64,000 bases of DNA from Gaiellales bacterium (lineage in GTDB: Bacteria > Actinomycetota > Thermoleophilia > Gaiellales > JAICJC01). The stretch spans positions 11,858 to 75,857 of the forward strand of contig DATIOK010000068.1 of NCBI GenBank assembly GCA_035473255.1. Reading direction: 5' to 3'. Below, in pieces: positions 21,638-61,784 of the stretch (position 1 is the stretch's first letter; the number at the start of each line of letters is the position of its first letter). Under the pieces are notes generated by a model. That model was not told where the DNA came from and searched no databases. It worked only from the letters and a program-made list of their open reading frames with translations. The position numbers and the translations under genes are program-made.

Positions 21638-21639
21638 CC

Positions 21640-42402: not shown

Positions 42403-43149
42403 ATGACGGACTCCCCCCGCGTCGGCGGCACGGCCGACGAGCACCTGCTGCAGCGCCACGACGCGACCTTTCTGCACACCGACCCGTGGCGGATCCTGCG
42501 CATCACCGGGGAGTTCGTGGAGGGCTTCGACCAGCTCGCCGACGTCGGCGCGGCCGTTGCCGTGTTCGGATCAGCCCGCACGCCCGCGGACGATCCCGCA
42601 TACGTCGCCGCCCGCGAGACCGCCCGGCTGCTGGTGGCCGACGGCTTCGGTGTCATCACCGGCGGCGGCCCCGGCATCATGGAGGCCGCCAACATGGGTG
42701 CGGCGGAAGCCGGCGGCGTGTCGATCGGCTGCAACATCGAGCTGCCCCACGAACAGCACGGCAACAGCTACGCGAACCTGTCGATGGAGTTCCGCTACTT
42801 CTTCGTGCGAAAGACCATGTTCGTGAAGTACTCCGAGGCGTTCGTGGTATTCCCGGGCGGCTTCGGGACGCTCGACGAGCTGTTCGAGGCGGTCACACTC
42901 GTGCAGACCGGCAAGATCCACCGCTTCCCGGTGGTGCTGTACGACAGCGCGTATTGGAATGGCCTGCTGGAGTGGCTGCGCGAGCGGGTCGTCGGGGAGG
43001 CCAAGTTGAGAGAGGCCGAGCTGGAGCTGCTGCAGGTAGTGGACACCCCCGCCGAGGCGGCTGGGATCGTGCGCGACTGCACGTCCGGGGCGTGCGGCCA
43101 CGAGCATCACCCGCCGGCTGAGACGCCCACGCGCACCGCCCCCACGTAG
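42403..43149 (+). CDS. LOG family protein (TIGR00730-type nucleotide 5'-monophosphate nucleosidase)
   Basis: VITGGGPGIMEAAN and PGGFGTLDELFE (PGGxGTxxE) are present. The C-terminus overlaps the convergent NlpC/P60 gene by 43 nt. Confidence 0.85.
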   Translation: MTDSPRVGGTADEHLLQRHDATFLHTDPWRILRITGEFVEGFDQLADVGAAVAVFGSARTPADDPAYVAARETARLLVADGFGVITGGGPGIMEAANMGAAEAGGVSIGCNIELPHEQHGNSYANLSMEFRYFFVRKTMFVKYSEAFVVFPGGFGTLDELFEAVTLVQTGKIHRFPVVLYDSAYWNGLLEWLRERVVGEAKLREAELELLQVVDTPAEAAGIVRDCTSGACGHEHHPPAETPTRTAPT

Positions 43150-44060
43150 TTGTCGGCGTACCAGCCGTCCAGCTCCGCGATCTGCACCACCGTCCCGGTG
43201 TGAGGCGCGTGCACGAAGCGTCCGCGGCCGAGGTAGATGCCGACATGGCCGAGGTTCTCGAAGAACACCAGATCCCCCGGCTCGAGCTGGGAGAACGGCA
43301 CGTGCACGCCGGCGTGATACTGGTCGCGGGCGACCCGGGGCAGGGCGAGGCCGAGGCGCCCGTACACGTACTGGACCAGCCCTGAGCAGTCGAAGCCGCT
43401 CGGATCCTCACCGCCCCAGACGTAGGGACGGCCGAGAAACTGCAGGCTGAGTGCGGCGGCGCGCCGGCCCAGGTCGGCGGTCGTGGTGTCGACGGGAAGC
43501 GAGTGCTCGACCGCGGCGTCGGGGTGCGGGCGCCGGCGCCTGGGATGACCGAAGCTGCCCTCCGGCAGGATCCCCTCGTCGACCAGCGCCTGCTGGGTGC
43601 GAGGGCCGGCCTCGCCGTCGACCACCAGCCCGTGGCTGCGCTGGAAGCGGCGTACCGCCGCCCGCGTGGCCAGTCCGTAGCGGCCGGTGGCAGGGAGGCC
43701 CAGCGCCCACTGCAGCGACGAGATCACGTGACCGCGGTCGCCGTGGCGGAACACCCGGGCTCCTGGTGTGCCCGCGTACTCCGCGTCAAGCGCCGCCCAG
43801 GTCAGCGGGCCCGGGACGCCGTCCACCTCGAGGCCGTGAGCCGACTGAAAGGCGCGCACGGCCCGCACGGTGCGCCGGTCGAGGAGGCCGCTGGGCGGCA
43901 GGCCGAGCAGCGTCTGCAGCCGCTGGAGCGAGCCGGCCGCCGTCGGCTGATCGGCGGTCGCGGGCGGCGTGCCGGCCGCCCGTGCCGCCGTGCCGCCGGC
44001 CACCGAGGGGGCCGTTACCACGACCCAGGCCAGGGCTGCGCGCGCAAGCAGCCGCTTCAT
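43107..44060 (-). CDS. secreted NlpC/P60 peptidoglycan hydrolase with two PG-binding (PG_binding_1-like) repeats
   Basis: ATG 44060..44058 gives the signal peptide MKRLLARAALAWVVVTAPSVAGG. There are two RAVRAFQSAHGLEVDGVPGP-type repeats. The catalytic region shows GFDCSGLVQYVY, GHVGIYLG and HAPHTG. ATGA overlap with the S8 protease stop. Confidence 0.85.
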   Translation of the reverse strand: MKRLLARAALAWVVVTAPSVAGGTAARAAGTPPATADQPTAAGSLQRLQTLLGLPPSGLLDRRTVRAVRAFQSAHGLEVDGVPGPLTWAALDAEYAGTPGARVFRHGDRGHVISSLQWALGLPATGRYGLATRAAVRRFQRSHGLVVDGEAGPRTQQALVDEGILPEGSFGHPRRRRPHPDAAVEHSLPVDTTTADLGRRAAALSLQFLGRPYVWGGEDPSGFDCSGLVQYVYGRLGLALPRVARDQYHAGVHVPFSQLEPGDLVFFENLGHVGIYLGRGRFVHAPHTGTVVQIAELDGWYADNYVGAVRVGVSAGG

Positions 44061-46261
44061 CCCACACCCCTGTCTGACTCGAACGCGTCGAACAGGAGCA
44101 CGCCTCTGGCGCCGGGCTGCAGGCCGCCCGACGGTCCCAGCATCACCCGCTCCAGGCGCCGCTCCCCGTTTCCGAGGTCGCCGACCGAGCCGGCAGGAGT
44201 GCCGTCGACCGCCAGCGTCACCGAACCGGGGCTGCCCGCCTGCCAGGTCAGATCGAGCACGTGGACGTCGTCGCTGACCCGCGTCCAGCGCGTCGACTCC
44301 CACCCCGATATCCCAATAGCGGAGGCGCGCAGGAAGACCCTGTGCACGACCGTCCGGTAGCGCAGCAGGAACACCCGGCCGCCACCGTCCCATCCGGCGA
44401 ACACGACCCAGGCCCGGCCGCCGGTCGATGTGCCGGACGGATCGAAGCTGAACCGGGCGTGGTAGCCGGACTCTGCGGCCGGCGACTGGTCGACGACGCC
44501 CGTGACAGCGCTGCCGGTCACCTTGGCGCGCAATCCATAGCCGTCACCGTCGAGCGCGGCCCACGGAGTGACCGCGAGCATGCCCGCGCCGCGGCGACCG
44601 GACCAGGCGCTGAGGTCGCCGCTGGCGAAGCTGTCCGTGAACAGGCCGGGGGAGTCCACGGTGACGGTGACCGTCTGCACCGCCCCCCAGTTGCCGGCGG
44701 AGTCGCGGGCGCGCACCGAGATCGTGTGCGTGCCGGGTGAGAGCGTGCCGACGTCCGCCGTCACGTCCTCGACCGGGGAGTCGAAGGCGCCGTCGGCCGG
44801 CAGAGCGGCGGTGGCCAGTCCCTGGCCGGGGTCGGCGCCGTCGAACCACTCAGCCCCGGTCACCGCCGACAGCCCATCGGTGGCGGTCGCGCCCAGCGTG
44901 GTTCCGGTAACCGACAACCCGCTCACGACCGGGCCGGCGACATCTCCGCCCAGGGACGCGATTGCCGCCGGCACGTCGATGCGCCCATCTCCGAACACGT
45001 TGTCGGGGCCGGGATCGCCCAGATCGGCTGCGCTCCGGCGCAGCGCAGTCTCCTGCTCGGCGGCGGTCAGACTCGGGTCGGCGCTCAGCAGCAGCGCCAG
45101 TGCGCCGGCGGCATGCGGGGCTGCCAGTGAGGTGCCTGTGGCGGTGGTGGTGCCGACCGGATCCAGCACGGGGACGTCCACGCCGGGAGCGGTCACGGCC
45201 GGATACGTGACCGCGGTGCCGCCGCAGGTGGTCGGCCCGCGGCTCGAGTCGGCTGCGATCTGATCGCCGGCGGTGGTGGCACCTACGGCCAGGGCTCCCG
45301 GATTGTTGGCCGGGCTGTAGTCGCTGGGCGATCCCGGGCCGGAGTTGCCGGCGGCGAACACGGGCAGGATCCGTGCCGCGCGCAGGGCGGTGATGTCGGG
45401 TTCGAACTCGAGGTTGCACCCCGCGGTCATCGACCAGGAGTTGTTCACGACCTGCGGGGCGTCAGTGGTGGCGGGGTCGTGGTCGGGGTCGAGCAGCCAC
45501 TGGAAGGCGAGGTGGATGGCGCTGGTGGTGGCCTGGCCGCGGTCGTCGAAGATGCGGGCCGCGATCCAGCGGCTGGCCGGCGCCACCCCCAGCGCCGTCC
45601 CGGTGGCACCGCCGGCCACCATGACGCTCATCGTATGGGTGCCGTGACCGGAAAGGTCGACCGGGGCTGCCGTGTGCTGCCCGTAGGGGTCAAACCAGCT
45701 GTTGGACCCGCCCCGCCATGCGGCCGCCAGCTCGGGGATGGTCATGTCCACGCCCGTGTCGAGCGAGGCAACCACCACGCCCTGCCCGCGGTCACCGAGC
45801 GCCCAGGCCCCGGGCGCCCCGATCGCGGTCAGGTTCGAGGCGGCGGCGCCGCCGCCCGCGTCTCCGGCGGCGTGCACGGTGATCGCGTCGTCATGCACCG
45901 AGGCGACGTCGGGACGGGCGGCCAGCTTCGCGATGACGTCGTCGCTGGCGGTCACAGCGATCGCGTTCACGATCCACAGTGGCCGCACGGCCGATACCGT
46001 GCCGGCTCGGCGGCCGGCCGCCAGCTGGTCGAGGATCGGCTGCTGCGACGCGTCGGCGGTGCTCTGCAGTGCCTGCTCCAACGCGCGCAGGCGCGCGCCT
46101 CGGGCGCGAGGCAGCCCACCGAAGTCGGCACGCTCGGTGAGCGTCACGATCACGCGGCGCATTGGCACCGGGCCGGCGGCGGCATTCCGGGCGGTGCCGG
46201 CGCCGGCCGCAGCGGTTCCCAGCAATGCCGCGGTCACCGCGAGCACGACCACGCGTCTCAC
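44057..46261 (-). CDS. secreted S8 (subtilisin-family) serine protease with one Ig-like repeat and a C-terminal jelly-roll/LamG-like module
   Basis: GTG 46261..46259 gives VRRVVVLAVTAALLGTAAAGAG. The catalytic triad is VASLDTGVD, HGTHTMSVMVAG and GTSLAAPHAAG. The Ig-like repeat is at 44657..44857 and the C-terminal module at 44060..44656; both are paralogous to parts of 48581..51973. Confidence 0.85.
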   Translation of the reverse strand: MRRVVVLAVTAALLGTAAAGAGTARNAAAGPVPMRRVIVTLTERADFGGLPRARGARLRALEQALQSTADASQQPILDQLAAGRRAGTVSAVRPLWIVNAIAVTASDDVIAKLAARPDVASVHDDAITVHAAGDAGGGAAASNLTAIGAPGAWALGDRGQGVVVASLDTGVDMTIPELAAAWRGGSNSWFDPYGQHTAAPVDLSGHGTHTMSVMVAGGATGTALGVAPASRWIAARIFDDRGQATTSAIHLAFQWLLDPDHDPATTDAPQVVNNSWSMTAGCNLEFEPDITALRAARILPVFAAGNSGPGSPSDYSPANNPGALAVGATTAGDQIAADSSRGPTTCGGTAVTYPAVTAPGVDVPVLDPVGTTTATGTSLAAPHAAGALALLLSADPSLTAAEQETALRRSAADLGDPGPDNVFGDGRIDVPAAIASLGGDVAGPVVSGLSVTGTTLGATATDGLSAVTGAEWFDGADPGQGLATAALPADGAFDSPVEDVTADVGTLSPGTHTISVRARDSAGNWGAVQTVTVTVDSPGLFTDSFASGDLSAWSGRRGAGMLAVTPWAALDGDGYGLRAKVTGSAVTGVVDQSPAAESGYHARFSFDPSGTSTGGRAWVVFAGWDGGGRVFLLRYRTVVHRVFLRASAIGISGWESTRWTRVSDDVHVLDLTWQAGSPGSVTLAVDGTPAGSVGDLGNGERRLERVMLGPSGGLQPGARGVLLFDAFESDRGVG

Positions 46262-46266
46262 GGCAG

Positions 46267-48081
46267 TCACTCCGAGGCGGGCAGTTCGGCCGGCGCCAGG
46301 GCCGGCGGCTGCCCGAGCATCGGCCTCAGCGCCCGCCACAGCAACGCGGCTGCGGCCAGCGCGAGCAGCACCTCGGCCAGCAGCGTCAGCAGCGGTGCCA
46401 GTGGCCGGTCGGACACCCAGGGCCGCCGCGGCGCCGGCCCGCCGGGGTGGTCCACGGGCCAGCGCAGCAAGGCGGTGGCGTCGGGCACACCCGCCCGGTG
46501 AACGACCACCTGCAGCGGCATCACGCCGGAGCGCGACAGGCGATGCGCCGGCACTCGCCAGATGCCGCCTGTCCGGACGGCGTCGACGATGTCACCCGCT
46601 GCCCGCCCGTCGGGCCAGCGGATGCCGACCCCGGTGACCGGGCCGGGCGCCGGCAGCCGCGTCTCGAGCACCTTCACCGATGCGAAGTTCGCACCCGGCC
46701 GGTTCGGCTTTACGGACACGCCCAGGATCAGGTCGTCGACCGCTGCGTAGCGGAGCGCCGGCGACCGGGCGACCTTCGCGGCGGGAGCGTACTGCGGCTC
46801 CCGCGCGGGGGCCGAGGCGGTCAGCATCGCCGCCGGCACCAGCACGGCCAACGCGATCGTTGTCTCCAGCGTCACCGCCAGCCGCAGCCTGCGGCCGCCG
46901 GCGCGGCGGCGCAGCAGCAGCAGGTTGGTCAGTCCCAGGACACCGACCGCCAGGAACAGCGCCGACTTCACCACCAGCGTGCGGCCGTAGACGCTCTGCA
47001 GCAGGGCGTCGGCGGAAGCGACCTGCACGCCGGCGCTGTACAGCCCGGTGATGGCGATCAGCGCCACGCAGCCCGCGGCGAGGTTCCCGAAGCAGCGCAG
47101 GACGATGCGCCCCGACCGGGTGTCACGGACGAGCAGCGGCGCCAGGCAGATCGCCGCCGCGGCCAGGCCTCCTGTCCAGACCGCGGCGGTCAGCAGGTGC
47201 GCGGTCATTGCCAGCACGGCCACGCTGAGGTCGCCGCGTGCCGCCGGAGCATGGCCGGTCAGCGCCAGCGTGCCGCACAGCGCCACCGCCATCGCAATCC
47301 CCGGCCATCGCAACCACGATCGCCGCCCGGCCCGCGGCAGCGCCACCAGCGTCGCCAGCAGGCCGATCAGCAGCAGCTCGCGCAGCGCCCAGCGCGGGCC
47401 ATAGGTCGTGCCGGTGAGCAGCGTCCAGCCGGCCGGCGCAAGCGCCCGGGGGAATGACGATGCCTGCACCAGCAGCAGCGCAATCCCGGTCACGAGTGCG
47501 GCCGCAGCCGCCAGCAGCGCCATCATCCGCAGCCGCCGCTCCAGCCCATCCAGGCCGCGGGCGCCGCGACCGGCGGCGGCCGGCAGCACCAGCAGCATCA
47601 TCGCCAGCGGGCCCAGCAGCGCGGCCACGGCGGCGAAGTCCAGCCAGCGCACCAGCACGCTGCCGGTGGCGGGCGTCGGGTCCGGAGGCAGCCCGGCTGA
47701 GGGCGCCACGTGGACGTTCCCGACGCCGAAGACCGTCTCCCCGCGGGTCGCGTGCAGGTCGTCGGTGGAGACGGTCTGCCAGACGATCCGGTAGACCCCG
47801 CTGGGCAGTTTCGGCAGGGCCAGGGTGAGGACGGCACTGTCGTGCCCGGGCACCACCCGGGCCGGGATCACACGACCCGATGCGCCGACCAGCTCGACCC
47901 GGCTGAGACCGGGGCTGACCTGTTCGCTGAACAGCAGTCGCATGGTGGGCGGCGAATGGGCGAGCGAGCTGCCGTCGGCCGGGTCAGAGCGCACCAGGTA
48001 GGCATGGGCGGACGCGGCTGCGGGCAGCGCCAGTGCGACCGCCGCGGCCACGGCCGCGACCGCTGCGCCGCGACGGATCAT
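46267..48081 (-). CDS. copper resistance protein CopC-CopD fusion (YcnJ-like) with extra C-terminal domain and TM
   Basis: ATG 48081..48079. The signal ends ...ASA|HAYLVRSDPADGSSL, giving the CopC N-terminal His. LPSGVYRIVWQTVSTDDLHATRGE is the CopC fold. Eight or more TMs follow (CopD), then a beta-rich segment and a final TM. ATGA overlap with the upstream gene. Confidence 0.8.
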   Translation of the reverse strand: MIRRGAAVAAVAAAVALALPAAASAHAYLVRSDPADGSSLAHSPPTMRLLFSEQVSPGLSRVELVGASGRVIPARVVPGHDSAVLTLALPKLPSGVYRIVWQTVSTDDLHATRGETVFGVGNVHVAPSAGLPPDPTPATGSVLVRWLDFAAVAALLGPLAMMLLVLPAAAGRGARGLDGLERRLRMMALLAAAAALVTGIALLLVQASSFPRALAPAGWTLLTGTTYGPRWALRELLLIGLLATLVALPRAGRRSWLRWPGIAMAVALCGTLALTGHAPAARGDLSVAVLAMTAHLLTAAVWTGGLAAAAICLAPLLVRDTRSGRIVLRCFGNLAAGCVALIAITGLYSAGVQVASADALLQSVYGRTLVVKSALFLAVGVLGLTNLLLLRRRAGGRRLRLAVTLETTIALAVLVPAAMLTASAPAREPQYAPAAKVARSPALRYAAVDDLILGVSVKPNRPGANFASVKVLETRLPAPGPVTGVGIRWPDGRAAGDIVDAVRTGGIWRVPAHRLSRSGVMPLQVVVHRAGVPDATALLRWPVDHPGGPAPRRPWVSDRPLAPLLTLLAEVLLALAAAALLWRALRPMLGQPPALAPAELPASE

Positions 48082-48584
48082 CGCACGACGACGTGGCGCA
48101 GCCACAGCGAGCCCATCTTCACCGACACCTTGTCCCCGGTGCGCACGGTGCCACCGTCGTTGCGGTACAGCAGGTAGTACTGGCGTCCCGCCTGCATGTG
48201 GTGCGGGAACATGGACATCGCCAGGCCGCCCAGCGTGCGCCCGGTGCGCTCGTCCACCAGCACCGGGAACGTCGACCGTGTGTGGCCGAAGGCGACGGCG
48301 CGGTCGGGATCGAGCGCGATGTAGCGCACGTCGACCATGCCGCCTGCGGCGGTCACGGCGATCTGCGAGACGCGGATGCCGTATCGGAGCTCAACCGTCG
48401 GGTTGTGCGGAACCGGCGGGTAGACGGTGGGGGCCTCTGCGCCGCGGCTGTCGTGGGCAACCAGAAACCCACCCACGACAACCGCGGTCAGGAGGGGCGC
48501 CAGCAACTGCCGGCGCATGAGGCCGCGCACCCCCGGGCGAGGGGTGCGCGGTGCGACCGGGGCGGGAGCGGTTTCAGCCGTCAT
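48078..48584 (-). CDS. small membrane-anchored protein of unknown function with Met/His motif
   Basis: 168 aa with one TM (LLAPLLTAVVVGGFLV), then a beta-rich domain containing AMSMFPHHMQ (48195..48218). ATGA overlaps at both ends support translation. No family recognised. Confidence 0.55.
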   Translation of the reverse strand: MTAETAPAPVAPRTPRPGVRGLMRRQLLAPLLTAVVVGGFLVAHDSRGAEAPTVYPPVPHNPTVELRYGIRVSQIAVTAAGGMVDVRYIALDPDRAVAFGHTRSTFPVLVDERTGRTLGGLAMSMFPHHMQAGRQYYLLYRNDGGTVRTGDKVSVKMGSLWLRHVVVR

Positions 48585-51500
48585 GGCCCGATCGTGCCTC
48601 CTCTGGTGGAGACGAAGTCGTCGAAGTAGAGGACGCCCGAGATCTTGGCGGCCAGCGTGTCCGACGGGCCCAGCTTCACCTTGTCGATTCGCTGAGAGCC
48701 GTTCACGAGCGAGCCCAGCGTCTGCTTCAGCGCTCCGTCCACCAGCAGCTTCAGAGATCCGCTGCCGGCTCCTGCCTTCCAGTCGACCTCGACCGCATGG
48801 GCGGCGTTCGAGATCGTGTACCAGGAGGTGTTTTTCCAGCTGCCGCCCGAGAGGGCGCCCGCGCGGATCCGGTAGACACCGGCACCGGTGCGGCTGTACT
48901 GGACGCGCGTGACCGTGCCGCCGCCGCCCTTGATGGCTGCGAGGATGGTGGGCGACGAGCTGCCGGGCAGCGCGCCGTGCGGATTGAAGTAGAACCGTGC
49001 GCTGTACTGCGACTCCAGCGCCGGCGAGTTGTCAAGTACGAACCGCGACGCGGTTCCCGACTGGGACGCCTGCAGGCCGTACTGGTCAGCCCCGTGCAGC
49101 TTGGCGGCAGCGGTCGCCGAGATCGCCGATCCACCCGTCGCCGACGACCAGGCACTCAGGTTGCCGGCCGCGAACGAGTTGGCGAACACGACCGGGTTGG
49201 AGATGGTGACCGTCACCTGTGCGACCGGTCCCCAGTTTCCCGCGGCATCGAGCGCGCGCACCGACAGTGTGTGGGTTCCGTTGGACAGGGTCGGCAGCGT
49301 CGCCCGGATGGCCTCGCTGTTCGAGTTGAAGCTGCCGTCCGTGGCGGTCATCGGCGTTGCCAGTCCCTGACCGGGGTCGGCTCCGTCGTACCATTCAGCG
49401 CCCACGATGACGCTGCCCGGGGTCGGTCCGGGCAAGCCCGGATCCGTGGCGGTGGCGGTCAGCGTGCCGGCCGCGACCGCCGGGCCGGCCGTGATGGCCG
49501 GGCCTGTCTTGTCCACGATCAGCGTGGCCGTGACCATCGCGCCCCAGTTACCGGCCGCATCCCTGGCGTGTGACGAAAACACGTGCGGGCCCTGGCTGAG
49601 CGCATTGATCTGGGCCAGCGGGAAGCGCATGTAGGCCGTCTCGGTGGGCGAGTCGAACGCGCCGTCGGTGGGCAGCAGCACCAGCCCGCTGCCGTTAGCG
49701 CCGACGGTATCGAGGAAGCCCTCGGCCCGCGTGATCGGCGAGTTGACGCCGCCCACCACCGGGTCGGCGAAGTCCGCCTCGACCTGCAGCTCGAACGAGT
49801 TGGGATCGATCGAGATGGTGCCGTTGTTGGGCGACGGGCCGATGCTCGCATTGCTGCCCGTCGGGCCGTTCTTGTCGACGACCAGCGGTGTCGAGGCAAA
49901 CGCACCCCAGTTGTTGAAGGCGTCGCGGGAGCGCACGTAGATCGTGTGTGCACCCACACCCAGCCCGGAGACGGTGGCCTGCGGGATCGTGCCCGTGATC
50001 TCGGAGATCGCGTTGGTGGGCGTCGTCACGGTCATGGCGGTGGGGGCGGCGCCGGTGCTGTCGATCCGGAACTCGGCGGCGCTGATGTTCTGGTCGCCGT
50101 TCAGCAGATCGGTGGCCGTGCCTGTGACGGCCACGCCGCTGGTGCCGTTGGTGTACGCGGGCGTCAGGGCCAGCGCGATGCTGTCCGGGCCGATCTCGTC
50201 GACGAAGAACGTCTCAGCGTCGAACCCGCCCCACGTGCCCGCGCTGTCGCGGGCGTGGATGAACACCGTGTGCGGGCCGGCGGCAAGCGGCGGTGAGCTG
50301 GGATCGATGGTGGCGCCGGTGACGACCGTCGAGGCCGGCGAACCGATCGTGATCGCCGTCCCGGAACCGTCGGCGCCCAGCGTGTCGACGAAGTACTCGG
50401 CGTCGGTCACGGTCTTGGGCGAGCCGGCGCTGGCCGGCGTGCAGGCGGAGAAGGTGGCCGAGATGGCGACCGGGGTGGTGCCGTCCGTCACGTCCGGCGT
50501 GGCGCTGCCGGAGACCGGCGATGGCCCGGCGCAGGTGTCGAGCGTGTCGGGGGTCTGGATGAACGTCATCATGCCGCCCGCGGTGACCGGTGCAGAGGCG
50601 GAGCTGGACCAGCCAGCTCCGGCCAGGTCGAGGTGCTGCCCCTGGTCGCTGACCGGGTAGGAGACAGCGCTGCCGGTGCCGCTCGGCATCGTCACCAGCG
50701 TGTCCATGGTGGCACCCGCGCCGACGGTTTCTGCGACCGCCTGATACGAGTACGTCAGTGGCAGCGCATCGTTGGCGATCACGCGCTGGTGCAGGCCGAG
50801 CGTGCTCATGGAGTGCTCGTCCAGCCCGGCGTTGACGTAGCGCAGCAGCACCGTGTCGCCACGCGCGGCGTTGATCACGTCGGTGGACGGGATGCTGCCG
50901 CCGTCGTGGTAGGTGCGCCCGTTGATCAGCCAGTAGCTGGCCTTGTAGCCCTTCATGTCGAAGCCGGACGGGTCGGCGGCGTTGTTGAGGGCGGGATCGA
51001 TCTCGCCCAGCACCAGCAGCGCCTCGGCGTCGAACGCCGTCGACGTGCCGTAGGCGCCGCTCTGCCCGCCGGCCAGGTTGGCCGGGCCCAGCGGGCTGAC
51101 CACGCCGCTGCCGTCGGAGCCGCCGGCCAGCGTCACCGTCACCAGCGCCGAAGCGGCCGGGTCGGCATTGATCGCAGCCATCACCTCGCTCGCCGTCGAC
51201 ACCGGCGCGCCGGTGCCGTCGGTGGCAAGGCTGACGGAGATGTCGGTTCCCGTCACCGACACGCTCAGCGGCGAGTTGGAGGCGGCGGGATCGACGTAGG
51301 TGATGCTGATCGCGTTGCCATCGACGCCGGAGTCGCCGGCCGTGAAGACGAGGTCGGCGTTGGGGCCGATGGCCGTGGTCAGCGTTGCGGCCGACAGGCC
51401 GGGCGGGCGCACGACCAGCGCGCCGTAGAGACCCATCGCCACCTGGTGGCGGGCGTTCTCGGTCGGCCCGGCCTCGTAGATGGTGGTGCCGGGGGTGGTT

Positions 51501-51973
51501 GCGGTGAACGTGTAGGTGCTTGAGTTGCCCTGCGTGACACCGGTGGTGTCGGGCACCAGAGGCGCCTCGGGAAGCATCAGCGACAACGCCTCGTTACCGC
51601 CGTTGACGGCGTTGGGGAGGGCGTTGTGCATGGTGATCGTGACCTGGTCGCCCTGGTCGACGACCAGCGTCGGGCCGCCCGGCTTGACCACGGAGTCGCC
51701 GGAGCTGGGCACGAAGCCCCACGTGGGCAGGGTGACGCCGCCGGGCAGGTCGGTGGTACCGGCCTTTGCCCACAGATCACAGGCCGGGTGTCCCGGGTTG
51801 GAGACGTCGCACGTGGTCGCGGGCAGCGCCGAAGCGATCGCCGCATCCGCGTGTACGACCTGCCGGTTGACGGGCGATCCCGCCGGAGCGGCAGCGGCCG
51901 CTGCCGGCAGCGTCACGGCTGCCAGCAGCGCGAGCGCCAGCGCTCGCTGAGTTCGCGTGAACCTGCGCGTCAC
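48581..51973 (-). CDS. two-domain multicopper-oxidase-like protein lacking copper ligands ('MCO-C'), fused to four Ig-like repeats and a C-terminal LamG-like module
   Basis: GTG 51973..51971. The signal is MTRRFTRTQRALALALLAAVTLPAAAAAA. The cupredoxin strings are paralogous to the two genes upstream (GTTIYEAGP...AMGLYGALVVRP; YKASYWLINGRTY) but contain no HxH or HCH. Repeats with ...H.....RA.D..GNWG lie at 49199..50407. The tail at 48584..49198 is paralogous to the S8 tail. Confidence 0.85.
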   Translation of the reverse strand: MTRRFTRTQRALALALLAAVTLPAAAAAAPAGSPVNRQVVHADAAIASALPATTCDVSNPGHPACDLWAKAGTTDLPGGVTLPTWGFVPSSGDSVVKPGGPTLVVDQGDQVTITMHNALPNAVNGGNEALSLMLPEAPLVPDTTGVTQGNSSTYTFTATTPGTTIYEAGPTENARHQVAMGLYGALVVRPPGLSAATLTTAIGPNADLVFTAGDSGVDGNAISITYVDPAASNSPLSVSVTGTDISVSLATDGTGAPVSTASEVMAAINADPAASALVTVTLAGGSDGSGVVSPLGPANLAGGQSGAYGTSTAFDAEALLVLGEIDPALNNAADPSGFDMKGYKASYWLINGRTYHDGGSIPSTDVINAARGDTVLLRYVNAGLDEHSMSTLGLHQRVIANDALPLTYSYQAVAETVGAGATMDTLVTMPSGTGSAVSYPVSDQGQHLDLAGAGWSSSASAPVTAGGMMTFIQTPDTLDTCAGPSPVSGSATPDVTDGTTPVAISATFSACTPASAGSPKTVTDAEYFVDTLGADGSGTAITIGSPASTVVTGATIDPSSPPLAAGPHTVFIHARDSAGTWGGFDAETFFVDEIGPDSIALALTPAYTNGTSGVAVTGTATDLLNGDQNISAAEFRIDSTGAAPTAMTVTTPTNAISEITGTIPQATVSGLGVGAHTIYVRSRDAFNNWGAFASTPLVVDKNGPTGSNASIGPSPNNGTISIDPNSFELQVEADFADPVVGGVNSPITRAEGFLDTVGANGSGLVLLPTDGAFDSPTETAYMRFPLAQINALSQGPHVFSSHARDAAGNWGAMVTATLIVDKTGPAITAGPAVAAGTLTATATDPGLPGPTPGSVIVGAEWYDGADPGQGLATPMTATDGSFNSNSEAIRATLPTLSNGTHTLSVRALDAAGNWGPVAQVTVTISNPVVFANSFAAGNLSAWSSATGGSAISATAAAKLHGADQYGLQASQSGTASRFVLDNSPALESQYSARFYFNPHGALPGSSSPTILAAIKGGGGTVTRVQYSRTGAGVYRIRAGALSGGSWKNTSWYTISNAAHAVEVDWKAGAGSGSLKLLVDGALKQTLGSLVNGSQRIDKVKLGPSDTLAAKISGVLYFDDFVSTRGGTIGP

Positions 51974-51974
51974 C

Positions 51975-53291
51975 TCAGCACCCCCCTGGTGGATCGACCC
52001 GCATCAAGGTCAGCATGCCGCCACCTGCGATCCCGAAGTTCGTGATCTGGTAAAGGGCGTGGCTATGCATCATGAAGTAGTACTCACCGCATTCGTTGTA
52101 ACTGGTCACGCCGACGGGCAGCGGGCCCTTGTAGCCGAGGTAGGGGCTGCCGCTGTACCAGGTCGCGTTGTCCTTGAACAGCAGGTTGGCGAGCGGCGGG
52201 ATGGCCACCGGGATCGGCTTGGTGTCCGGGTTCCATCCGTCCACGTCCGTCCACGTGTAGGTGGCGTCGGCGGTCTGCCCGGGGCCCACGGCCACCGTGT
52301 ACTTCTCGTAGCTCAGGTCCTGCCCAGCCGGCCCCTGCAGCGCCTGGCCGTCGCGTGCGATCACGCGGCCGTGGTTGCCGTGGGGATGGAACGGGTAGGT
52401 GACCGGCCCGGTGCTCAGGTAACGCACCAGCGAGGGCTTGTTGAACGGGTTGCCGGGATCGCTCGAGTGCGGCTGGAACTCGACCAGCGAGCTGTAGGGC
52501 TGGGTCGGCAGCCAGGCCGCGTTGTTCGGCGCGATCGTGTCGGGGAAGCTGCGACCGTTCACGAACCAGTAGTGCGGGTGGTAGGCCTTCATGTCGAAGG
52601 GCTGGTTCCGCTCGACGGCGCGGTGCAGGGCCGGATCCGACTGCGACAGCAGCATCACGTACTCGGTGTCGGGGTTGAAGGCCGAGTCGGAGCGGTTGTA
52701 GGCGAATGCCGCTCCCATCGAGGGCCGCACCACCATCGCGCCCACCAGTCCCATGTCCAGCTGCTTGTCCTGGTCGGTGCCGCTCTCGTAGATGTAGGTG
52801 CCGGGCTGGCCGGCGGTGAACGTGTAGCTGACGCTGCCGCCGTTGGCCTTGGCGGTCTGGGCCAGCGAGACGAGGTTCCCGCCCTGGTATACCGGGGAGA
52901 CCGGCACCCCGCTGGAGGTGACATTGTCTTGCCCCGGAAACACGATCGAGGTGTCCTCGGGGAGGGTGTTCTTGAGCACGATCGTGACGGTCTGCCCCTG
53001 GTTCAGGCACAGCACCGGGCCCGGGTACTGGAAGCCGCCGCCAGTCGGCGCGAAGCTCCACATGTAGACCAGGTTGTCGTCGGGGGTGGAGATCTGGCCG
53101 TCCCGTGCCGTCAGCTTGAAAACGTTGTTCGAGTCCGGATGGCTGCAGACGATGCCGGTCGCGGGCACGCTCACCCCGGACGCCTTGGGCGCACCGGTGG
53201 TCTCGATCCCGGCGATCAGGGCCAGCCCCAGCAGCGGCGCGATCCACCAGCGGAGCAGTCTCTTGCGTGCGTGTGTGAGAGTCTTCGTCAC
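51975..53291 (-). CDS. two-domain multicopper oxidase paralog ('MCO-B') with trinuclear-cluster-type His motifs only in domain 2
   Basis: GTG 53291..53289 is preceded by GAGG. The N-terminal hydrophobic segment is WWIAPLLGLALIAGI. Domain 1 has no HxH. Domain 2 has FHPHGNHG (52371..52388) and MMHSH (52059..52067). The family-typical GTYIYESG...DMGLVGAMVVRP is present. Confidence 0.8.
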   Translation of the reverse strand: MTKTLTHARKRLLRWWIAPLLGLALIAGIETTGAPKASGVSVPATGIVCSHPDSNNVFKLTARDGQISTPDDNLVYMWSFAPTGGGFQYPGPVLCLNQGQTVTIVLKNTLPEDTSIVFPGQDNVTSSGVPVSPVYQGGNLVSLAQTAKANGGSVSYTFTAGQPGTYIYESGTDQDKQLDMGLVGAMVVRPSMGAAFAYNRSDSAFNPDTEYVMLLSQSDPALHRAVERNQPFDMKAYHPHYWFVNGRSFPDTIAPNNAAWLPTQPYSSLVEFQPHSSDPGNPFNKPSLVRYLSTGPVTYPFHPHGNHGRVIARDGQALQGPAGQDLSYEKYTVAVGPGQTADATYTWTDVDGWNPDTKPIPVAIPPLANLLFKDNATWYSGSPYLGYKGPLPVGVTSYNECGEYYFMMHSHALYQITNFGIAGGGMLTLMRVDPPGGC

Positions 53292-53298
53292 GTCTGCC

Positions 53299-54636
53299 TC
53301 ACGCGTTCGGGGTGGTTTGGGCCGGGAGCGTTCCGGCCGGGTACGCGCGCAGCTCTGTGCGCAGCCCGGCATGGGCGCCTGATTTCGTCAGATAGCCGTC
53401 GGCGTAGTTGCGGTCGAACAGCGGGTATACGTCGTACGGCGAGCCGCTCGGCTCGGGCATGGTGATGATCACGTCGGTCGCCTCCCCGGGGCCGATGTCG
53501 AGCGTCTCGGCCAGGTAGCTGGTGTCGGTCCCGTCGCGGCCGCGCATCAGCGTGGCGTCCTTGCCGACCACCTTCATGGGCAGTCCCGGCAGGGTGATCG
53601 AGTGCTGCTGGTAGCCGATGTTGACGACCCGCACCAGCACGCGCTCGCCGGCGTTGCCCTTGATCAGGGCCGAGATCGGCTGGTATGCCAGCCGCGGATC
53701 GGCGAACCCGATCGGGTTGCCGTTGGCGTCGTAGCCGCTGCTGGCCTGGAGCGTGTCCGGGTAGGAGCGACCGTTGAAGAACCAGGCGTCGGCCTTGAAC
53801 TCCGACCAGTCCGGCTGCTGGATGTGCGCGTCCTCCCAGTGCGACTGCAGGTACCACTCGGTGATCAGCAGCGCGTACTCGCGGTCGTAGGCGGTCGAGC
53901 CGTCGCCGTCGTTGTAGGCGTAGGGGCCGGGGTGGCCGGCGATCGGCGCCTTGTTCTGGGCCGGCCGCACGAACACCACGCCGGTCATTCCCATCTGCAC
54001 GTGCTCGACGTCCTCGAAGTGGCAGTGGTAGATGTAGGTGCCGGGGTTGTGCGGCTTGTAGAAGTAGGGGAAGGTGCGGCCGATCGGAACCGAGATCGAC
54101 ATCTCCGGTATGCCGTCGAACAGCGACAGCGCGTTGCGGAAGCCATGCCAGTGGATGGTGTGGCCGTCGGTCAGGTCGGGGCGCTGCTGGAACCCGAGGT
54201 TGCTGAGCGAGATCGTGACGTCGTCGTTCTCGTCGACGTAGATCAGCGGCGCGCTCGCCTGGATCTTGCCCTTCTGGGCGCGGATCGCCGCCACGTCGGT
54301 GGCGATCAGCTGCGGGTTGCCGGTGGCGGTGCGGGCCGCCTGCACCATACTGGTCACGTCCCGGAAGCCGAACAGGTAGGTGGTGCGGTTGTTCGGGGCG
54401 TAGCCGTCGGGGAAGTACTTGGTCGGGTTCCTGGGATCGGGCAGCGAAATCCAGCCGTCGGTCGCGATCAGGTTGATCTCACCCTTGACGCCGGTGTAGC
54501 CGTTGCCGGCGGCGCGGGCGCTACCGCCCGTGCGGAGGATGCCCATGCCCCCGGCCGCCAGCACGGCGCCGGCTCCGGCTCCGGCCTTGAGCGCTGCGCG
54601 CCGCGTGAATCGGCGGTCGTTCCAGTTGCCTGTCAT
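53299..54636 (-). CDS. two-domain multicopper oxidase paralog ('MCO-A') with Tat signal, type-1 Cu site and half of the trinuclear ligands in domain 1
   Basis: Tat-like NDRRFTRRAALKAGAGAGAVLAAG. Domain 1 has HTIHWHG (54145..54162) and YHCHFEDVEHVQMGM (53986..54027). Domain 2 has no HxH motif. ATGA overlap with the upstream giant gene. Confidence 0.85.
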   Translation of the reverse strand: MTGNWNDRRFTRRAALKAGAGAGAVLAAGGMGILRTGGSARAAGNGYTGVKGEINLIATDGWISLPDPRNPTKYFPDGYAPNNRTTYLFGFRDVTSMVQAARTATGNPQLIATDVAAIRAQKGKIQASAPLIYVDENDDVTISLSNLGFQQRPDLTDGHTIHWHGFRNALSLFDGIPEMSISVPIGRTFPYFYKPHNPGTYIYHCHFEDVEHVQMGMTGVVFVRPAQNKAPIAGHPGPYAYNDGDGSTAYDREYALLITEWYLQSHWEDAHIQQPDWSEFKADAWFFNGRSYPDTLQASSGYDANGNPIGFADPRLAYQPISALIKGNAGERVLVRVVNIGYQQHSITLPGLPMKVVGKDATLMRGRDGTDTSYLAETLDIGPGEATDVIITMPEPSGSPYDVYPLFDRNYADGYLTKSGAHAGLRTELRAYPAGTLPAQTTPNA

Positions 54637-57600
54637 CGCTCGTCAGCCCCCAGGTCCTTCCCGGACGACGGCCGGGTTTGGTTGTCGATGTCGAAGGTCG
54701 GCGCGTTCACGCCCGACTGCGAGTTGACCGCCAGGTTCAGCGCCTGGGATCCGGCCGCGAGGTGGTAGTTGCCCGCCAGCAGCTCGGCCACCGACTGGGC
54801 GATCGTGATGGCGGCGATGAAGTGCGGGTCGCCGCGCCACGGGAACGGCGAGATCAGCGTGTCGTACGGATTCACAACGATGCTGCCGGGAGCTCCCGCC
54901 ACCAGCGTGTTGGTGCCGTCGTTTGCGGCCGGCACCGCGCCCGCCACCGGCTGGCTGGGGCCGTAGCCCTGCAGCAGCGTGTGGTGCGGGTGCAACGGGC
55001 CGAGGCCGTCGGCGACGCCCATGTCCCAGTAGCGGATCGGTGCCGGGTCGCCGGTCTGGCCGATGCCGGACACGGTGCCCGAGCTGAGATCCCAGGCGCC
55101 GGCGCGGTTGTCGTCGAACACGTTGTTGAACATCAGCGGGTCGCTGTAGTGGGCGTGGGAGGCGGGCAGCTTGGCCTGCAGCAGCGTGCTGTTGCCGGTG
55201 TCCGATAGGCCCGCCGGAGCCGGTTGGCCGTTGCTGGTGGCTGCCGTCGCCGTGGTGATGTTCTTCATCACCGTGTTGTTGTAGAAGCGCGTGTTGGTGG
55301 CGTCGTCGAGGGCCACGCCGCCGCCCTCGTGGGTCGACACGTTGTTCACGATCATGTTGTTGAAGATCGAGATCTGCGAGTCGTTGAGGGTGCCGTTGGC
55401 GTTCGCGCCGCTGGTCATCAGCAGCCGCAGCCCGCCGCCGTCGTCGTTGGCCACGTTCTCCTGGATCAGGTTGTTGAAGACGCTGACCGAGCCGGAGCCG
55501 CGCGTCAGCGTGGTCTTGGGATTGGCGGGCAGCTCGCCGGCGATCATCACGCCGGCGCCCTCGTCGTACGAGCCGTTCAGGTAGATCTGGTTGTCGTGGA
55601 TCTGCCCGCCGGGGCTGAGGCCGAAGTGGCTGATGCCGCCGCCGTACTCCGACGAGAAGTTGCCGCAGACGTCGTTGAAGCTGAGGTCGTAGTTGTTGGC
55701 ACCGGTGAACAGCGCCACCGCGCCGGCCAGGTTGGAGCCGCCGTTGTGGAGGATCCGGTTGTGCGAGATCAGCAGGTTGTTGTTGTTGTTCGAGCCGATG
55801 TTGGGAGTGCCGACGCGGATCGCGCCGCCGTAGGAACCGCCGTTACCGTCGATCACGTTGTTGGTGACGTGCATGAAGTGGGCCTGCGCGTTCACGTACA
55901 CGCCGCCGCCCTGCGTCACCGCGGCCTCCTGGGTGGGATCGCCGACCGGGTTGGGCACCGGGCCGCCGCCGTTGTCGAACAGGCTGCCGGGGAAGTCGAT
56001 CTGGTCGCCGCCCATCAGCGTGAACCCGTCGATCGATCCGGGGAAGGCGCTCGTGAACTGGCCGGTCGTGCGCGGGTACACCGACACCACCGGGCCCTCG
56101 TAGATGTTCTGGTTGCCGGTCCGGGTGAGGCCGCTGACCAGCGTCGTCCAGTCGGTGGCGTAGTTGTTGTCACCGTCGGCAGCGAAGCCGCCCTGGGTGT
56201 AGAAGTACCGGCCGTTCAGGATCGAGCCGGGCACTGCGTGCTGCGTGCCGCCGGCGGTGTAGATGCCGCCCGGGCCGACGCCCTGGAGCTTGATCGGCTT
56301 GTTCATGACCACGTTTTCGAAGTAGCTGCCGAGCGGGTTGCCGTTGCTCGGCGTATCCGGGTACACGACCACCAGTCGCCTGCCGGTGCCGGGGTTGGCG
56401 GCGTTGATCGCGTCCTGCACCGTGGCCGGTGTGGTGGCCTGGGTGTCGAACTGCTTGCCGGGACCGACCTCGATCACGGTCGGGGTGTAGTTCCCGCCCA
56501 GGATGTGGTACGTGATTCCGTCGATGGTCGACTGTGCGCCGGCTCCCGCTGTCCTGATGATGAGCTGATGCGGCGCGCCGATCCGCGAGGCCGCGGACGA
56601 GGCCGTCGACGACGACCGGGACGGCATCTGCGCCACGATCTGGTTGTCCGTCCAGGAGGTGATCGAGCCGGAGGTGCTGCCGGTAACCGCGGAGGTGATC
56701 GACACGCCGTCCAGCAGCACGTTTCCGGTCGCGTTGCCGAAGTTCTTGCCGGTGATCGTGATCGTGCGCTGAGCAGTGGTGGCGTTGTTCACCTGGTACG
56801 GGCGGCTGACCGAGAACATCTGCGGTATGGCCGTGGGCAACGTGCAGTCGGCCGGGTGCAGCGTCTGCGTGCCCGGGCCTTCGACCAGCTGTGCGATCGG
56901 CACCGGCGCCAGGTCGGCAGGCAGCGTCAGGTTCGGCCACAGCTGGAAGTTGGTGGCAGCCGTCCGGTAGTTCGGGTTGAAGTCGGCGTTGGGATGCTCG
57001 GGCGTGCCGGGGTCGTTTGCCACGAACCGATACACGTTCGGGCAGGGCCCGGCCGGCAGCGGGCAGTTGTACGAGCTGACCGACGGCAGGATGTCCTCGA
57101 ACACGCCGTTGGCGTCGGTGTGCATGGTGTCGACCAGGCGGCCGGTGTAGTCGTACAGGCCGACCGGCATGTTCGGGATGCCCAGCTTCTCGCCGTAGAA
57201 CAGCTCCTTGGGATTGCTGGAGAGCGTCAGGTCGTCGGTCACCAGGCCGTGGAAGCGCCCGGGCACCGGCACGTCGGTGAAGAAGTGGAAGTTGGGCGTC
57301 GCCGAGTACTGATCCTTGAGGGTGACCAGCTGGGTGTCGCAGATCGGCTTCTGCTCGCCCTCGTACGGGCTGCCGCCGATGTCCGCGAACCCGGGGTTCG
57401 CAGTCGGCGTCGAGGCCGGCACCGTGACGGTGCCGCCGTCGAGGCTGACCGGGCCGTAGCTGTCCTGCCCAGAGCCGGCCACGTCCACCGTGTGCAGGGC
57501 GCCGGCGCACGGATAGGGAGGCTCCTGTGGCGTGTAGGAGTCACCGGTGGCGATGTTGATGTCCTCCTCGCGCACCGGCTTGTAGACGGGCTGGTGCGTG

Positions 57601-59900: not shown

Positions 59901-59936
59901 CGAGCTCCTCCTCGTCACAGGCAATCGAGCCTGGTG

Positions 59937-59966
59937 ACCGTAAGGTCGGAGGAGAAGCGCAAGCAA
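59937..59966 (-). promoter_or_regulatory. candidate promoter for the giant gene/copper operon
   Basis: On the minus strand: TTGCTT (59966..59961), an 18-nt spacer, then TACGGT (59942..59937; fits TAnnnT). It lies about 37 nt upstream of the GTG at 59900. Sequence match only. Confidence 0.25.
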
Positions 59967-59994: not shown

Positions 59995-61089
59995 TCATGC
60001 GACTGTTTTCTGCCGGGACGAGCGGCGGTCCTCGCGGATCGCGCCCAGCAGAGAGTCGGATGCACCCGGTTCGAACCCCGGCAGCGTGATCCGGAACAGC
60101 GCCCCACCCATCGGCGAATCGCCGACCTCGGCGGTTCCGCCGTGGGCCTCGGCGATCGCCTTCACCAGCGGCAGGCCGAGGCCCGCGCCACCCCCGCCGG
60201 CTGCGCGGCCGGCGCGGGTGAAGCGCTCGAACACCTCCGGGCGGCGGTCGGGATCGATGCCGCAGCCCGAGTCGGCAACCTCGATCACGGCTCGCGTACC
60301 CTCGGCGCGCGCCGTGATCGAGATCGCGTCGCCCTCCGCGGTGAACCGCAGGGCGTTCTCGACCAGCGCATCCAGCGCCTGGCCGATCTGCTCGACGTCG
60401 ACCGTGACCGTCCCTTCGGCCTCGATGTCGACGCGCCAGCGCCGGTCGGCCGTGGCGCCCCAGCGGCGGGCGCTGTCGACCACCAGCTCCTCGAGCTCGA
60501 TCTGCTCGGGGCGCAGGAACCCGGTATGGCCGGCCGCGGCGAGCACCAGCAGGCGATGCGAAATCCGTGACAGCTGCTCCAGCTCGTGCAGCACGATGGC
60601 GGCGTCATCACCGGTCTCGGTGCCGATGTGCGACTCGCGGATCAGATCGGCGTGGCCGCGTGCGACGGCGATCGGCGTCCGCAGCAGGTGCGACGCGTCA
60701 CGCGCGAAGCTGCGCTCGGTCTCGGCAGCTCGTCGCACCTCGACCAGCGCCGCCTCGCGGCGGCGCGCGTGCCACACCATCGCAAGGAACATCGCCGACA
60801 TCAACGGGATCTCCGTCAGCTCGTCGATGCCGGGGCCGCCGGTGGCCTCCGCCGCGTGCACCAGCCCGACGCCCGTAATCAGACAGACGACCGACAGCAC
60901 CACGGCGGTCAGCCGCAGCCCCCACACGCGGAACCCGTAGAACAGCGTCAGGCTCACCCAGATGAAGTGGAACGGGACGGTCGTCCAGCTGGTCAGGTGC
61001 CAGAGTACGAGGACGTTGGCTGCCCAGAATGCCCCCAGGCCGACGTCCTGCCAGTACCTACGAACCAATGAAGCTGTATCCGACACCAC
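59995..61089 (-). CDS. sensor histidine kinase (membrane-embedded sensor, no obvious periplasmic domain)
   Basis: About four N-terminal TMs with very short loops. The HisKA motif is RDASHLLRTPIAVARGHADLI. The HATPase_c motifs are ENALRFT, VADSGCGIDP and GGGAGLGLPLVKAIAEAHGG. The GTG start overlaps the regulator gene by 32 nt. Confidence 0.85.
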   Translation of the reverse strand: MVSDTASLVRRYWQDVGLGAFWAANVLVLWHLTSWTTVPFHFIWVSLTLFYGFRVWGLRLTAVVLSVVCLITGVGLVHAAEATGGPGIDELTEIPLMSAMFLAMVWHARRREAALVEVRRAAETERSFARDASHLLRTPIAVARGHADLIRESHIGTETGDDAAIVLHELEQLSRISHRLLVLAAAGHTGFLRPEQIELEELVVDSARRWGATADRRWRVDIEAEGTVTVDVEQIGQALDALVENALRFTAEGDAISITARAEGTRAVIEVADSGCGIDPDRRPEVFERFTRAGRAAGGGGAGLGLPLVKAIAEAHGGTAEVGDSPMGGALFRITLPGFEPGASDSLLGAIREDRRSSRQKTVA

Positions 61090-61726
61090 GCACCGTTTCG
61101 ATCGCTCGTGTTCCCACCTTGGCCCGCAACCGGGCCACGTACACGTCGACCACGTTCGTGCCGGGGTCGAACGTGTAGCCCCAGACCCGCTCCAGCAGCT
61201 CGTCGCGCGTGCACACCTCGGTCGGGTGTCGCATCAGATGCTCCAGCAACACGAACTCCCGGGTCGAGAGGCTGCATCGGCCGAGGCCGGTGTCGACCAC
61301 GCGCCGGGCGAGGTCGAGCTCGACCGAGCCGACCCGAAGCGTCCGCTCCGGCTGGAGCGCGGAGGTGGCCTGACGCAGACGGGAGCGGATCCGCGCCACC
61401 AGCTCGCCCAGCTGAATCGGCTTGACCAGGTAGTCGAGCGCGCCCATCTCGAGGCAGCGCACCTTGGTATCGACGTCGGCGATCGCCGACATCACGATCA
61501 TCCGCTGGTTGGGCTCGCGACGCAGCGTCTCGCGCATCAGCGTGACGCCGTCCACCGTCGGCAGCAGCAGGTCCACCAGCATCAGGTCGTAGTTGCCCTG
61601 CTCCGCCATCTGCAGCCCGCGCAGACCGTCGCCGGCGGTGTCAACGCCGAACCCATGCCGCGTCAGTGCGCGTGAGACGAACCTGACCATGTTTGGTTCG
61701 TCGTCGATCACCAATATACGAGCCAC
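61058..61726 (-). CDS. OmpR/PhoB-family response regulator
   Basis: The receiver domain shows RILVIDDEP and DLMLVDLLLPTVDG (phospho-Asp). The winged-helix shows LSTREFVLLEHLMRHPTEVCTRDELLERVWGY and VDVYVARLRAKV. GTG 61726 (VARILVIDD) is preferred over the ORF-track TTG at 61756, because a G-run SD and the promoter below fit it. Confidence 0.85.
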   Translation of the reverse strand: MARILVIDDEPNMVRFVSRALTRHGFGVDTAGDGLRGLQMAEQGNYDLMLVDLLLPTVDGVTLMRETLRREPNQRMIVMSAIADVDTKVRCLEMGALDYLVKPIQLGELVARIRSRLRQATSALQPERTLRVGSVELDLARRVVDTGLGRCSLSTREFVLLEHLMRHPTEVCTRDELLERVWGYTFDPGTNVVDVYVARLRAKVGTRAIETVRGVGYSFIGS

Positions 61727-61755
61727 TTGCGGAGCCCCCCCAACGTTCTGGCGCA

Positions 61756-61784
61756 ACGGTACGTGACCGATTGTTTGATGTCAA
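61756..61784 (-). promoter_or_regulatory. near-consensus sigma-70-type promoter upstream of the two-component system
   Basis: On the minus strand: TTGACA (61784..61779), a 17-nt spacer, then TACCGT (61761..61756). The predicted start of transcription would leave a leader of about 25 nt containing GGGGGGG before GTG 61726. Confidence 0.4.

Follow-up and report, generated by a model that had tools for sequence, protein, structure and literature searches.

A copper-free paralogue as the putative third protomer of a heterotrimeric two-domain multicopper oxidase encoded in a Gaiellales genome

Textbook accounts of multicopper oxidase (MCO) evolution lead from two-domain homotrimers to fused six- and three-domain enzymes, with copper sites being lost after fusion. 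The ring formed by a homotrimeric two-domain MCO (2dMCO) gives three copper sites. The trinuclear cluster of each of these is built where domain 1 of a protomer meets domain 2 of its neighbour (PMC13151041). Type-C 2dMCOs, represented by the structure 3g5w and the metagenomic laccase mgLAC (2zwn), are homotrimers, and each trimer has three clusters as well as three identical type-1 sites. Here, we describe a locus from a Gaiellales bacterium (assembly GCA_035473255.1, contig DATIOK010000068.1, positions 11,858 to 75,857; this stretch of 64,000 nucleotides is the window throughout) in which, by contrast, the ligands of such a site are split over two adjacent genes, A and B, and a third paralogue, C, has none at all. 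We propose that the product of gene C (48581..51973, on the minus strand like every other gene discussed below) is the third, non-catalytic subunit of a secreted 2dMCO heterotrimer, closing an A-B-C ring with a single active site, and we place the probability of this reading at roughly 60%.

Proteins built from six cupredoxin domains provide a second point of comparison. Ceruloplasmin, hephaestin, the MnxG-type oxidases and coagulation factors V and VIII all form a pseudo-threefold ring in which there is never more than one trinuclear cluster; a large number of their copper sites have been lost, and the dead cupredoxin domains are kept as structure, which is what we propose for C. Bacterial six-domain oxidases contain one type-1 site and one cluster within their six cupredoxin domains, and factor V has no copper sites left (PMC3600357). 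The six-domain proteins are single polypeptides that arose by gene triplication and fusion, whereas the locus considered here consists of three separate, translationally coupled genes. FtsP (SufI) of Escherichia coli, a monomeric, periplasmic protein of the divisome with a three-domain MCO fold, is copper-free and has a structural role. It resembles C in being a bacterial oxidase homologue devoid of copper ligands but is not paired with active paralogues, and the two are compared here as members of a functional class and not by homology. Another possible precedent, in which an oxidase would be accompanied by a partner poor in ligands, was the iodide oxidase IoxA/IoxC. We dropped it: IoxC, the function of which is unclear, is not described as an oxidase paralogue (PMC9415286).

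Gene C is an intact open reading frame (ORF) with a GTG start, encoding 1130 amino acids plus a stop codon. The AlphaFold2 (AF2) model of the full-length protein, built from 90 homologues, has a mean predicted local confidence (pLDDT) of 87.2, with low values over residues 1-48, a stretch that includes the signal peptide region (approximately residues 1-30; 51884..51973). The model places cupredoxin domain 1 at residues 56-189 (51407..51808) and domain 2 at residues 316-473 (50555..51028), close to the limits of about 60-190 and 306-475 proposed in a first-pass annotation of the window made from the letters alone. Pfam, AF2 and Foldseek agree that these are two tandem cupredoxin domains with the fold of 2dMCOs and copper nitrite reductases (NirKs). 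The Pfam family Cu-oxidase_3 matches residues 100-191 (E 1.9e-9), and domain 2, when scanned alone, gives a weaker Cu-oxidase match. In the PDB, the top Foldseek match is 3g5w, the type-C two-domain blue copper oxidase of Nitrosomonas europaea (E 1.3e-14, template modelling (TM) score 0.70), followed by the two-domain laccase 2zwn, 4kns (TM 0.77) and trimeric NirKs, with coagulation factors V and VIII also among the matches; searching the PDB by sequence returned the same set. Type-C 2dMCOs, which like C possess two cupredoxin domains, are therefore its best matches by structure and by sequence. Beyond this oxidase core C carries some 650 additional residues, made up of an insertion between the cupredoxin domains, four immunoglobulin (Ig)-like domains and a C-terminal tail.

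The first-pass annotation had reported that C contains no HxH or HCH motif, and a direct scan of the protein agrees, finding no H-x-H tripeptide anywhere and Cys only at positions 55, 65, 481 and 511. Misalignment is not the cause of this. When C is aligned with A, the HTIHWH of A lies opposite a deletion and its YHCHxxxxxH opposite YEAGxxxxxxxQ; when C is aligned with B, the HPH and HSH of B lie opposite non-His residues or a deletion, such that domain 2 of C has neither of the HxH motifs that B has at equivalent positions. The four type-1 ligands of A (H159, C205, H212 and M217) correspond to a deletion, A168, Q177 and L182 in C, and this is kept family-wide, Leu in domain 1 thus standing in place of the axial Met. 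The eight His of a trinuclear cluster (two HxH per domain) are likewise missing from C, with no HxH conserved among the 90 homologues; across the 120 best homologues the motif almost never occurs and, when present, is found at scattered, non-equivalent positions. The replacement residues are in turn conserved, and domain 1 of B agrees in them with domain 1 of C, reading E, S or A, G, then Q. The position of H204 of A is occupied by E in C (90%) and B (62%), that of C205 by A in C (98%) and S in B (96%), that of H206 by G in both (95% of C, 100% of B) and that of the type-1 ligand H212 by Q in both (98% and 100%, respectively). Given that around 90 homologues of C are also without conserved copper ligands, the loss is ancient and does not reflect decay.

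Could C nevertheless use non-canonical ligands to bind copper, or another metal, and serve A and B as a chaperone, store or sensor? The presence of a CopC-CopD gene in the operon might favour this, as might the neighbouring response regulator, which finds its best NCBIfam match in the heavy-metal family cztR_silR_copR (192 bits, below the family cut-off of 279). We looked for hidden ligands of this type among the 90 aligned homologues and found none: in the oxidase part just one His per cupredoxin domain is moderately conserved (H116 in 81% and H387 in 87%), the conserved Met are M180, M389 and M468, and the only conserved Cys of the family are the N-terminal pair 55/65. Together with the sporadic, non-equivalent occurrence of HxH across the family, these observations make a cryptic metal-binding role very unlikely in our view. 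With H116, H387 and the Cys pair as the only candidates, no type-1 or trinuclear site is possible in C, and since the ligand tests fail C falls outside the catalytic 2dMCOs.

The loss of all copper ligands could also be taken as the mark of a decaying oxidase pseudogene, an explanation that is refuted by the state of the gene and its relatives. We found 553 homologues of C, the top 120 of which are similar in length (mostly 830-1400 residues), and matches occur in several hundred species-representative genomes. The 120 best homologues come from Chloroflexota, many Actinomycetota and one Anaeromyxobacter metagenome-assembled genome (MAG); at JGI, homologues are named 'FtsP/CotA-like multicopper oxidase'. 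Like the 1130-codon ORF of the window, the orthologues recovered with their DNA, at 98%, 71% and 65% identity, are all intact. We compared C of the window with its orthologues by the Nei-Gojobori method and obtained ratios of nonsynonymous to synonymous change (dN/dS) of 0.30-0.38 for the whole gene. The values for the two copper-free cupredoxin domains (0.25-0.28) are the lowest in C and those for the Ig-like region are 0.27-0.31, both determined against two diverged orthologues, with 0.32-0.44 for the tail and 0.33-0.41 for the insertion. C is an intact, conserved, copper-free paralogue under purifying selection, and its description in the first-pass annotation as a catalytically dead enzyme paralogue is borne out. 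With an MCO fold, lost ligands and a gene under selection, it belongs among the copper-free pseudo-oxidases, which are a functional class and not a clade.

Genes A and B, located immediately upstream of C, are also two-domain MCO paralogues and share 32-34% identity with C across both domains. The product of A (53299..54636) carries a twin-arginine translocation (Tat) signal and has in its domain 1 a type-1 site (H159, C205, H212 and M217) together with four cluster His (H162, H164, H204 and H206). These align to the motifs HTIHWHG and YHCH....EH..M of domain 1 of 3g5w, which A has kept. H159, H162, H164 and M217 show little or no variation among 73 orthologues of A, and H204, C205, H206 and H212 are present in 97-99% of these. 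Domain 2 of A lacks the complementary cluster His. In B (51975..53291) the arrangement is reversed. Its domain 1 is dead, having no copper ligands, and its four cluster His all lie in domain 2 (H329, H331, H436 and H438 in the numbering of the 465-residue ORF); of these, H329 and H331 are invariant in 76 orthologues and H436 and H438 are found in 75. Each of the two proteins therefore holds half of one trinuclear cluster, and neither could complete a site as a homotrimer. None of A, B and C has a specific NCBIfam model.

As A and B each contribute half a cluster, a ring of two-domain units requires a third, copper-free member. The dead domain 2 of A and the dead domain 1 of B both need a partner to face, and C has exactly the profile expected of it. 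In the assembly that we propose, A would provide the type-1 copper and half of the cluster from its domain 1, B would provide the complementary half from its domain 2 and C would provide nothing. Copper would then be confined in the A-B-C ring to the A/B interface, with a single type-1 site and a single trinuclear cluster, while the B/C and C/A interfaces would be copper-free and the cupredoxin domains of C kept for ring closure only. The four Ig-like domains and the jelly-roll-like tail of C would form an extracellular arm for positioning or anchoring the enzyme, a role that we infer for it.

The genomic context of the three genes is strongly conserved. A scan of species-representative genomes gave at least 574 matching stretches, and the proteins of the window were compared with the ORFs of the 80 loci which were kept. 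Nearly all of these have the order BIG-A-B-C-SMALL, in which BIG and SMALL are a large and a small gene described below, followed by CopC-CopD (CopCD) and/or an S8 subtilase gene. Apart from one MAG labelled Acidobacteriota, the 80 loci belong to Chloroflexota and Actinomycetota, and cultured carriers among them include Amycolatopsis, Terrabacter, Kribbella and Cryobacterium. Carrier strains are, for instance, Amycolatopsis sp. NBC_01480 (CP109442.1), Terrabacter tumescens JCM 1365 and Kribbella koreensis JCM 10977. In the window (44057..54660) ATGA overlaps occur at the BIG/A, C/SMALL and SMALL/CopCD junctions and gaps of 1-7 nucleotides separate A/B, B/C and CopCD/S8, pointing to translational coupling from BIG to S8. 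For B, CopCD and S8 the start of the longest ORF is too far upstream, and the true starts are likely to be at 53291, 48081 and 46261, respectively. The first-pass annotation had considered a structural third subunit to fit its observations. The A-B-C order, the coupling and the invariant half-clusters of A and B all speak in favour of this, whilst the physical assembly itself and its 1:1:1 stoichiometry are what we infer from the fold, the conserved gene order and the way in which the ligands of A and B complement each other.

A shared gene order is not in itself proof of a complex, and C might instead be a stand-alone secreted binder or adhesin, either a monomer or a copper-free homotrimer, that is co-expressed with the A/B oxidase without belonging to its ring and that may bind a wall polymer, BIG or a substrate. 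More than half of C does consist of Ig-like and jelly-roll modules typical of surface binders. However, A and B alone cannot close a two-domain ring without leaving a half-built copper site, it is the copper-free cupredoxin domains that are the most constrained part of C, and the sharing of replacement residues between C and domain 1 of B is hard to explain in a mere spacer. We regard this possibility as unlikely, if the most substantial of the alternatives. The Mnx complex of Bacillus, in which MnxG is accompanied by the accessory subunits MnxE and MnxF, illustrates that other MCOs have accessory partners, and C could similarly be peripheral to an A/B core, acting as a tether or substrate recruiter with its cupredoxin domains serving as a docking module. 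The same conserved context and coupling would be seen in this case. Yet the closest folds to C are those of ring-forming trimeric two-domain oxidases and NirKs, and an identity of 32-34% to A and B over both domains makes an equivalent position in the ring the simpler reading, so that a peripheral placement appears improbable.

Several considerations nevertheless weigh against C as the third protomer of the ring and against its arm as an anchor. The stoichiometry and the order of subunits in the putative ring are drawn from homology to homotrimers, and conserved adjacency would also be expected of a co-expressed partner located outside it. Export is a further consideration. A Tat signal is present in 67 of 73 A orthologues, whereas B and C are mostly without one and mostly have Sec-type signals. 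This pattern is consistent with assembly outside the cytoplasm; with A leaving by Tat and B and C by a Sec-type route, the cluster at the interface would have to be metallated after export, a plausible requirement. In addition, C contains no sortase signal or other recognisable anchor. With respect to its export, we had also entertained C as a Tat substrate given the 'RRFTR' in its signal peptide region and dropped the idea: an RR motif is present somewhere in the first 260 residues of 15 of 82 C orthologue ORFs, in several cases inside domain 2, and a conserved twin-arginine motif matching that of the window was not found. The Tat substrate of the three is A.

The extra modules of C have different histories. 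An insertion of about 115 residues (residues 191-305; 51059..51403), reported in the first-pass annotation as being without counterpart in A or B, is confirmed as such by alignment; it begins directly behind the 'VVRP' with which domain 1 ends, and the modelled beta/alpha domain comprises 111 residues (193-303; 51065..51397), follows the last strand of domain 1 and occupies the inter-domain linker. The insertion is also missing from 86 of 90 C homologues, its only carriers being C of the window and its four closest relatives. With the insertion as query, a word-indexed protein search returned just seven matches, all unnamed. When 1.84 billion representative proteins were searched exhaustively with HMMER, 2473 of them matched at E <= 1e-3 and 878 at E <= 1e-10; identity to the insertion is 40-60% across approximately 105 residues. 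Most members of this family have 2-11 tandem copies of a repeat of some 108 residues. The hosts include flagellins, in which the domain lies between Flagellin_N and Flagellin_C, a hook protein (FlgE), phage proteins of the tail fibre J-like and tail-sheath-like types and a PKD/Bmp protein. In PHROGs the insertion matches phrog_8757, 'virion structural protein' (E 2.3e-5).

Modelled alone, the insertion gives a pLDDT of 94.9 and a predicted TM score of 0.87, and the model resembles predicted structures of uncharacterised phage proteins in BFVD (TM 0.65-0.79). No PDB neighbour was found by Foldseek (best E 1.9) or by sequence profile, and a Pfam scan at E <= 10 returned nothing beyond DUF7556 and Phytoreo_P8, both at E of about 0.07. 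We had considered Flagellin_IN as a possible relative, and the same scan detected no Flagellin_IN motif in the insertion. The domain has no other copy in the window, and we saw no compositional sign of recent transfer, its G+C content at third codon positions (0.93) equalling that of the rest of gene C. Compared with the domains that decorate phage virions and the variable regions of flagellins (phrog_8757, phrog_279), to which it is 40-60% identical and which occur in tandem, the insertion differs in being a single copy inside a protein with an enzyme fold. Its similarity to unrelated hosts extends over the whole domain, and we conclude that it is one lineage-specific captured copy of a mobile surface-decoration domain of the flagellin, hook and phage tail family. 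In the lineage of the window, among relatives of Gaiellales, this domain entered the linker, which presumably lies on the exterior of the proposed ring. In open-access text we found no literature on this flagellin and phage domain, and the family looks undescribed, being absent from Pfam and having no relative that could be detected in the PDB.

The arm of C comprises residues 481-1130. AF2 resolves four beta-sandwiches in this region, corresponding to Ig-like domains 1 (residues 481-594; 50192..50533), 2 (595-702; 49868..50191), 3 (703-823; 49505..49867) and 4 (824-926; 49196..49504), which in BLASTP comparisons are mutually 28-36% identical (E 2e-14 to 7e-6). The first-pass annotation had described four repeats of about 70 residues within 49199..50407. 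Their number stands, and the second half of the motif it gave, H..x.(R/H)..D..(G/N).WG, has exactly four matches in C, at residues 568, 676, 797 and 901. The length does not: the Ig-like unit is around 100-120 residues and the first one starts at residue 481 (window position 50533), upstream of the 50407 given there. The first half of the motif, AE(Y/F/W).D..G, has no match anywhere in C as written because the spacing varies. The Pfam family Big_13 matches the repeat region scanned alone with 34.6 bits (cut-off 27, E 2.8e-8) over three stretches, compared with only 20.8 bits in the full-length protein, and the best match of Big_13 or OmpL47 type is to the fourth domain.

The tail of about 205 residues (48584..49198) had been labelled laminin G (LamG)-like. 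There is indeed a C-terminal all-beta, jelly-roll-like module at residues 927-1130 (48584..49195), of which AF2 resolves 927-1123, and it is conserved across the family with the pattern FxDGFESG..W ... YFD.F.S.R..IGP. The tail of the window has no Pfam match even at E 10, and among 28 tail homologues Laminin_G_3 was detected in one (E 9e-4), compared with CBM_4_9 in six (best E 3.9e-4). A profile of the tail also matches the carbohydrate-binding module (CBM) 22 of xylanase 4xup (E 6e-4), over the first 45 residues only. The weak signals thus favour CBM4/9/22 and 'LamG-like' is not established; a description as 'jelly-roll lectin/CBM-like' is defensible, the fold class being based on secondary structure and weak profile matches.

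The remaining genes of the operon place A, B and C in a wider setting. BIG (54633..59966), always the first gene, encodes a secreted protein of approximately 1777 residues (its start codon is uncertain; 1700-2500 residues in other genomes) with SdrD_B, CarboxypepD_reg and TIG beta-sandwiches and C-terminal beta-helix-like repeats. SMALL (48078..48584) encodes 168 residues, of which an N-terminal segment is hydrophobic. The gene shares an ATGA overlap with the stop codon of C, its position immediately behind C is conserved in 71 loci, and it has no match in Pfam or NCBIfam. We considered SMALL as a His/Met copper chaperone, a suggestion that was not supported, the MFPHHM of the window not being conserved in the 71 orthologues. 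Pfam and NCBIfam scans identified the CopC-CopD fusion (46267..48081), and the secreted S8 subtilase with an Ig-like domain (44057..46261) frequently closes the operon. Upstream, on the same strand as the operon, is a two-component system (59995..61756) formed by a histidine kinase (59995..61089) and a response regulator (61058..61756). In the Amycolatopsis chromosome the gene order is the same, and a two-component system also adjoins the operon.

Similarly to the cop/pco operons (CopA, CopC, CopD and CopRS), the locus combines an oxidase with CopC/CopD and a neighbouring two-component system. It differs from them in several respects: CopA/PcoA is a single three-domain oxidase, there is no CopB here, BIG, SMALL and S8 are additional, and the regulator falls below the family cut-off. 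A cop-like copper-handling role for the operon is suggested by just two of its features, the CopCD gene and the regulator. Elsewhere in the window, a gene for an NlpC/P60 peptidoglycan hydrolase with PG_binding_1 domains (43107..44393) follows S8, as it also does in the three closest relatives, and a gene of the phosphomannomutase family is located at 38444..39790. The product of the latter shares 77-80% identity with proteins of 'Gaiellales bacterium' MAGs and 96% with unnamed metagenome proteins, which points to an uncultured member of the Actinomycetota as the source of the window. The window has a G+C content of approximately 70% and shows a local dip in GC skew (-0.16) at 20001..22000 against a slightly positive background.

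In open-access text we found no report of heteromeric two-domain oxidases, so that 'undescribed' is to be taken as provisional. We consider the odds to be about even that A-B-C represents the first recognised natural heterotrimeric 2dMCO, an unfused counterpart of six-domain oxidases such as ceruloplasmin and MnxG. Duplication would in this case have been followed by the reduction of three identical sites to one that is shared by two subunits, leaving the third as a pure scaffold, free to gain display or anchoring modules, among them the decoration domain that flagellins and phage tails also have. The operon is widespread in soil Chloroflexota and Actinomycetota, and BIG and SMALL are uncharacterised. 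If our proposal is correct, the loss of sites and the division of roles between subunits would be possible while the genes stay separate, and the operon would represent a living and experimentally tractable model of that step, being carried by cultured Amycolatopsis, Terrabacter and Kribbella. Hundreds of genes annotated simply as 'multicopper oxidase' are unable to act alone, which matters for enzyme mining and for the reading of metagenomes. The insertion in C, for its part, exposes a large domain family that is common to flagellins, hook proteins and phage tails and that has neither a Pfam model nor a solved structure.

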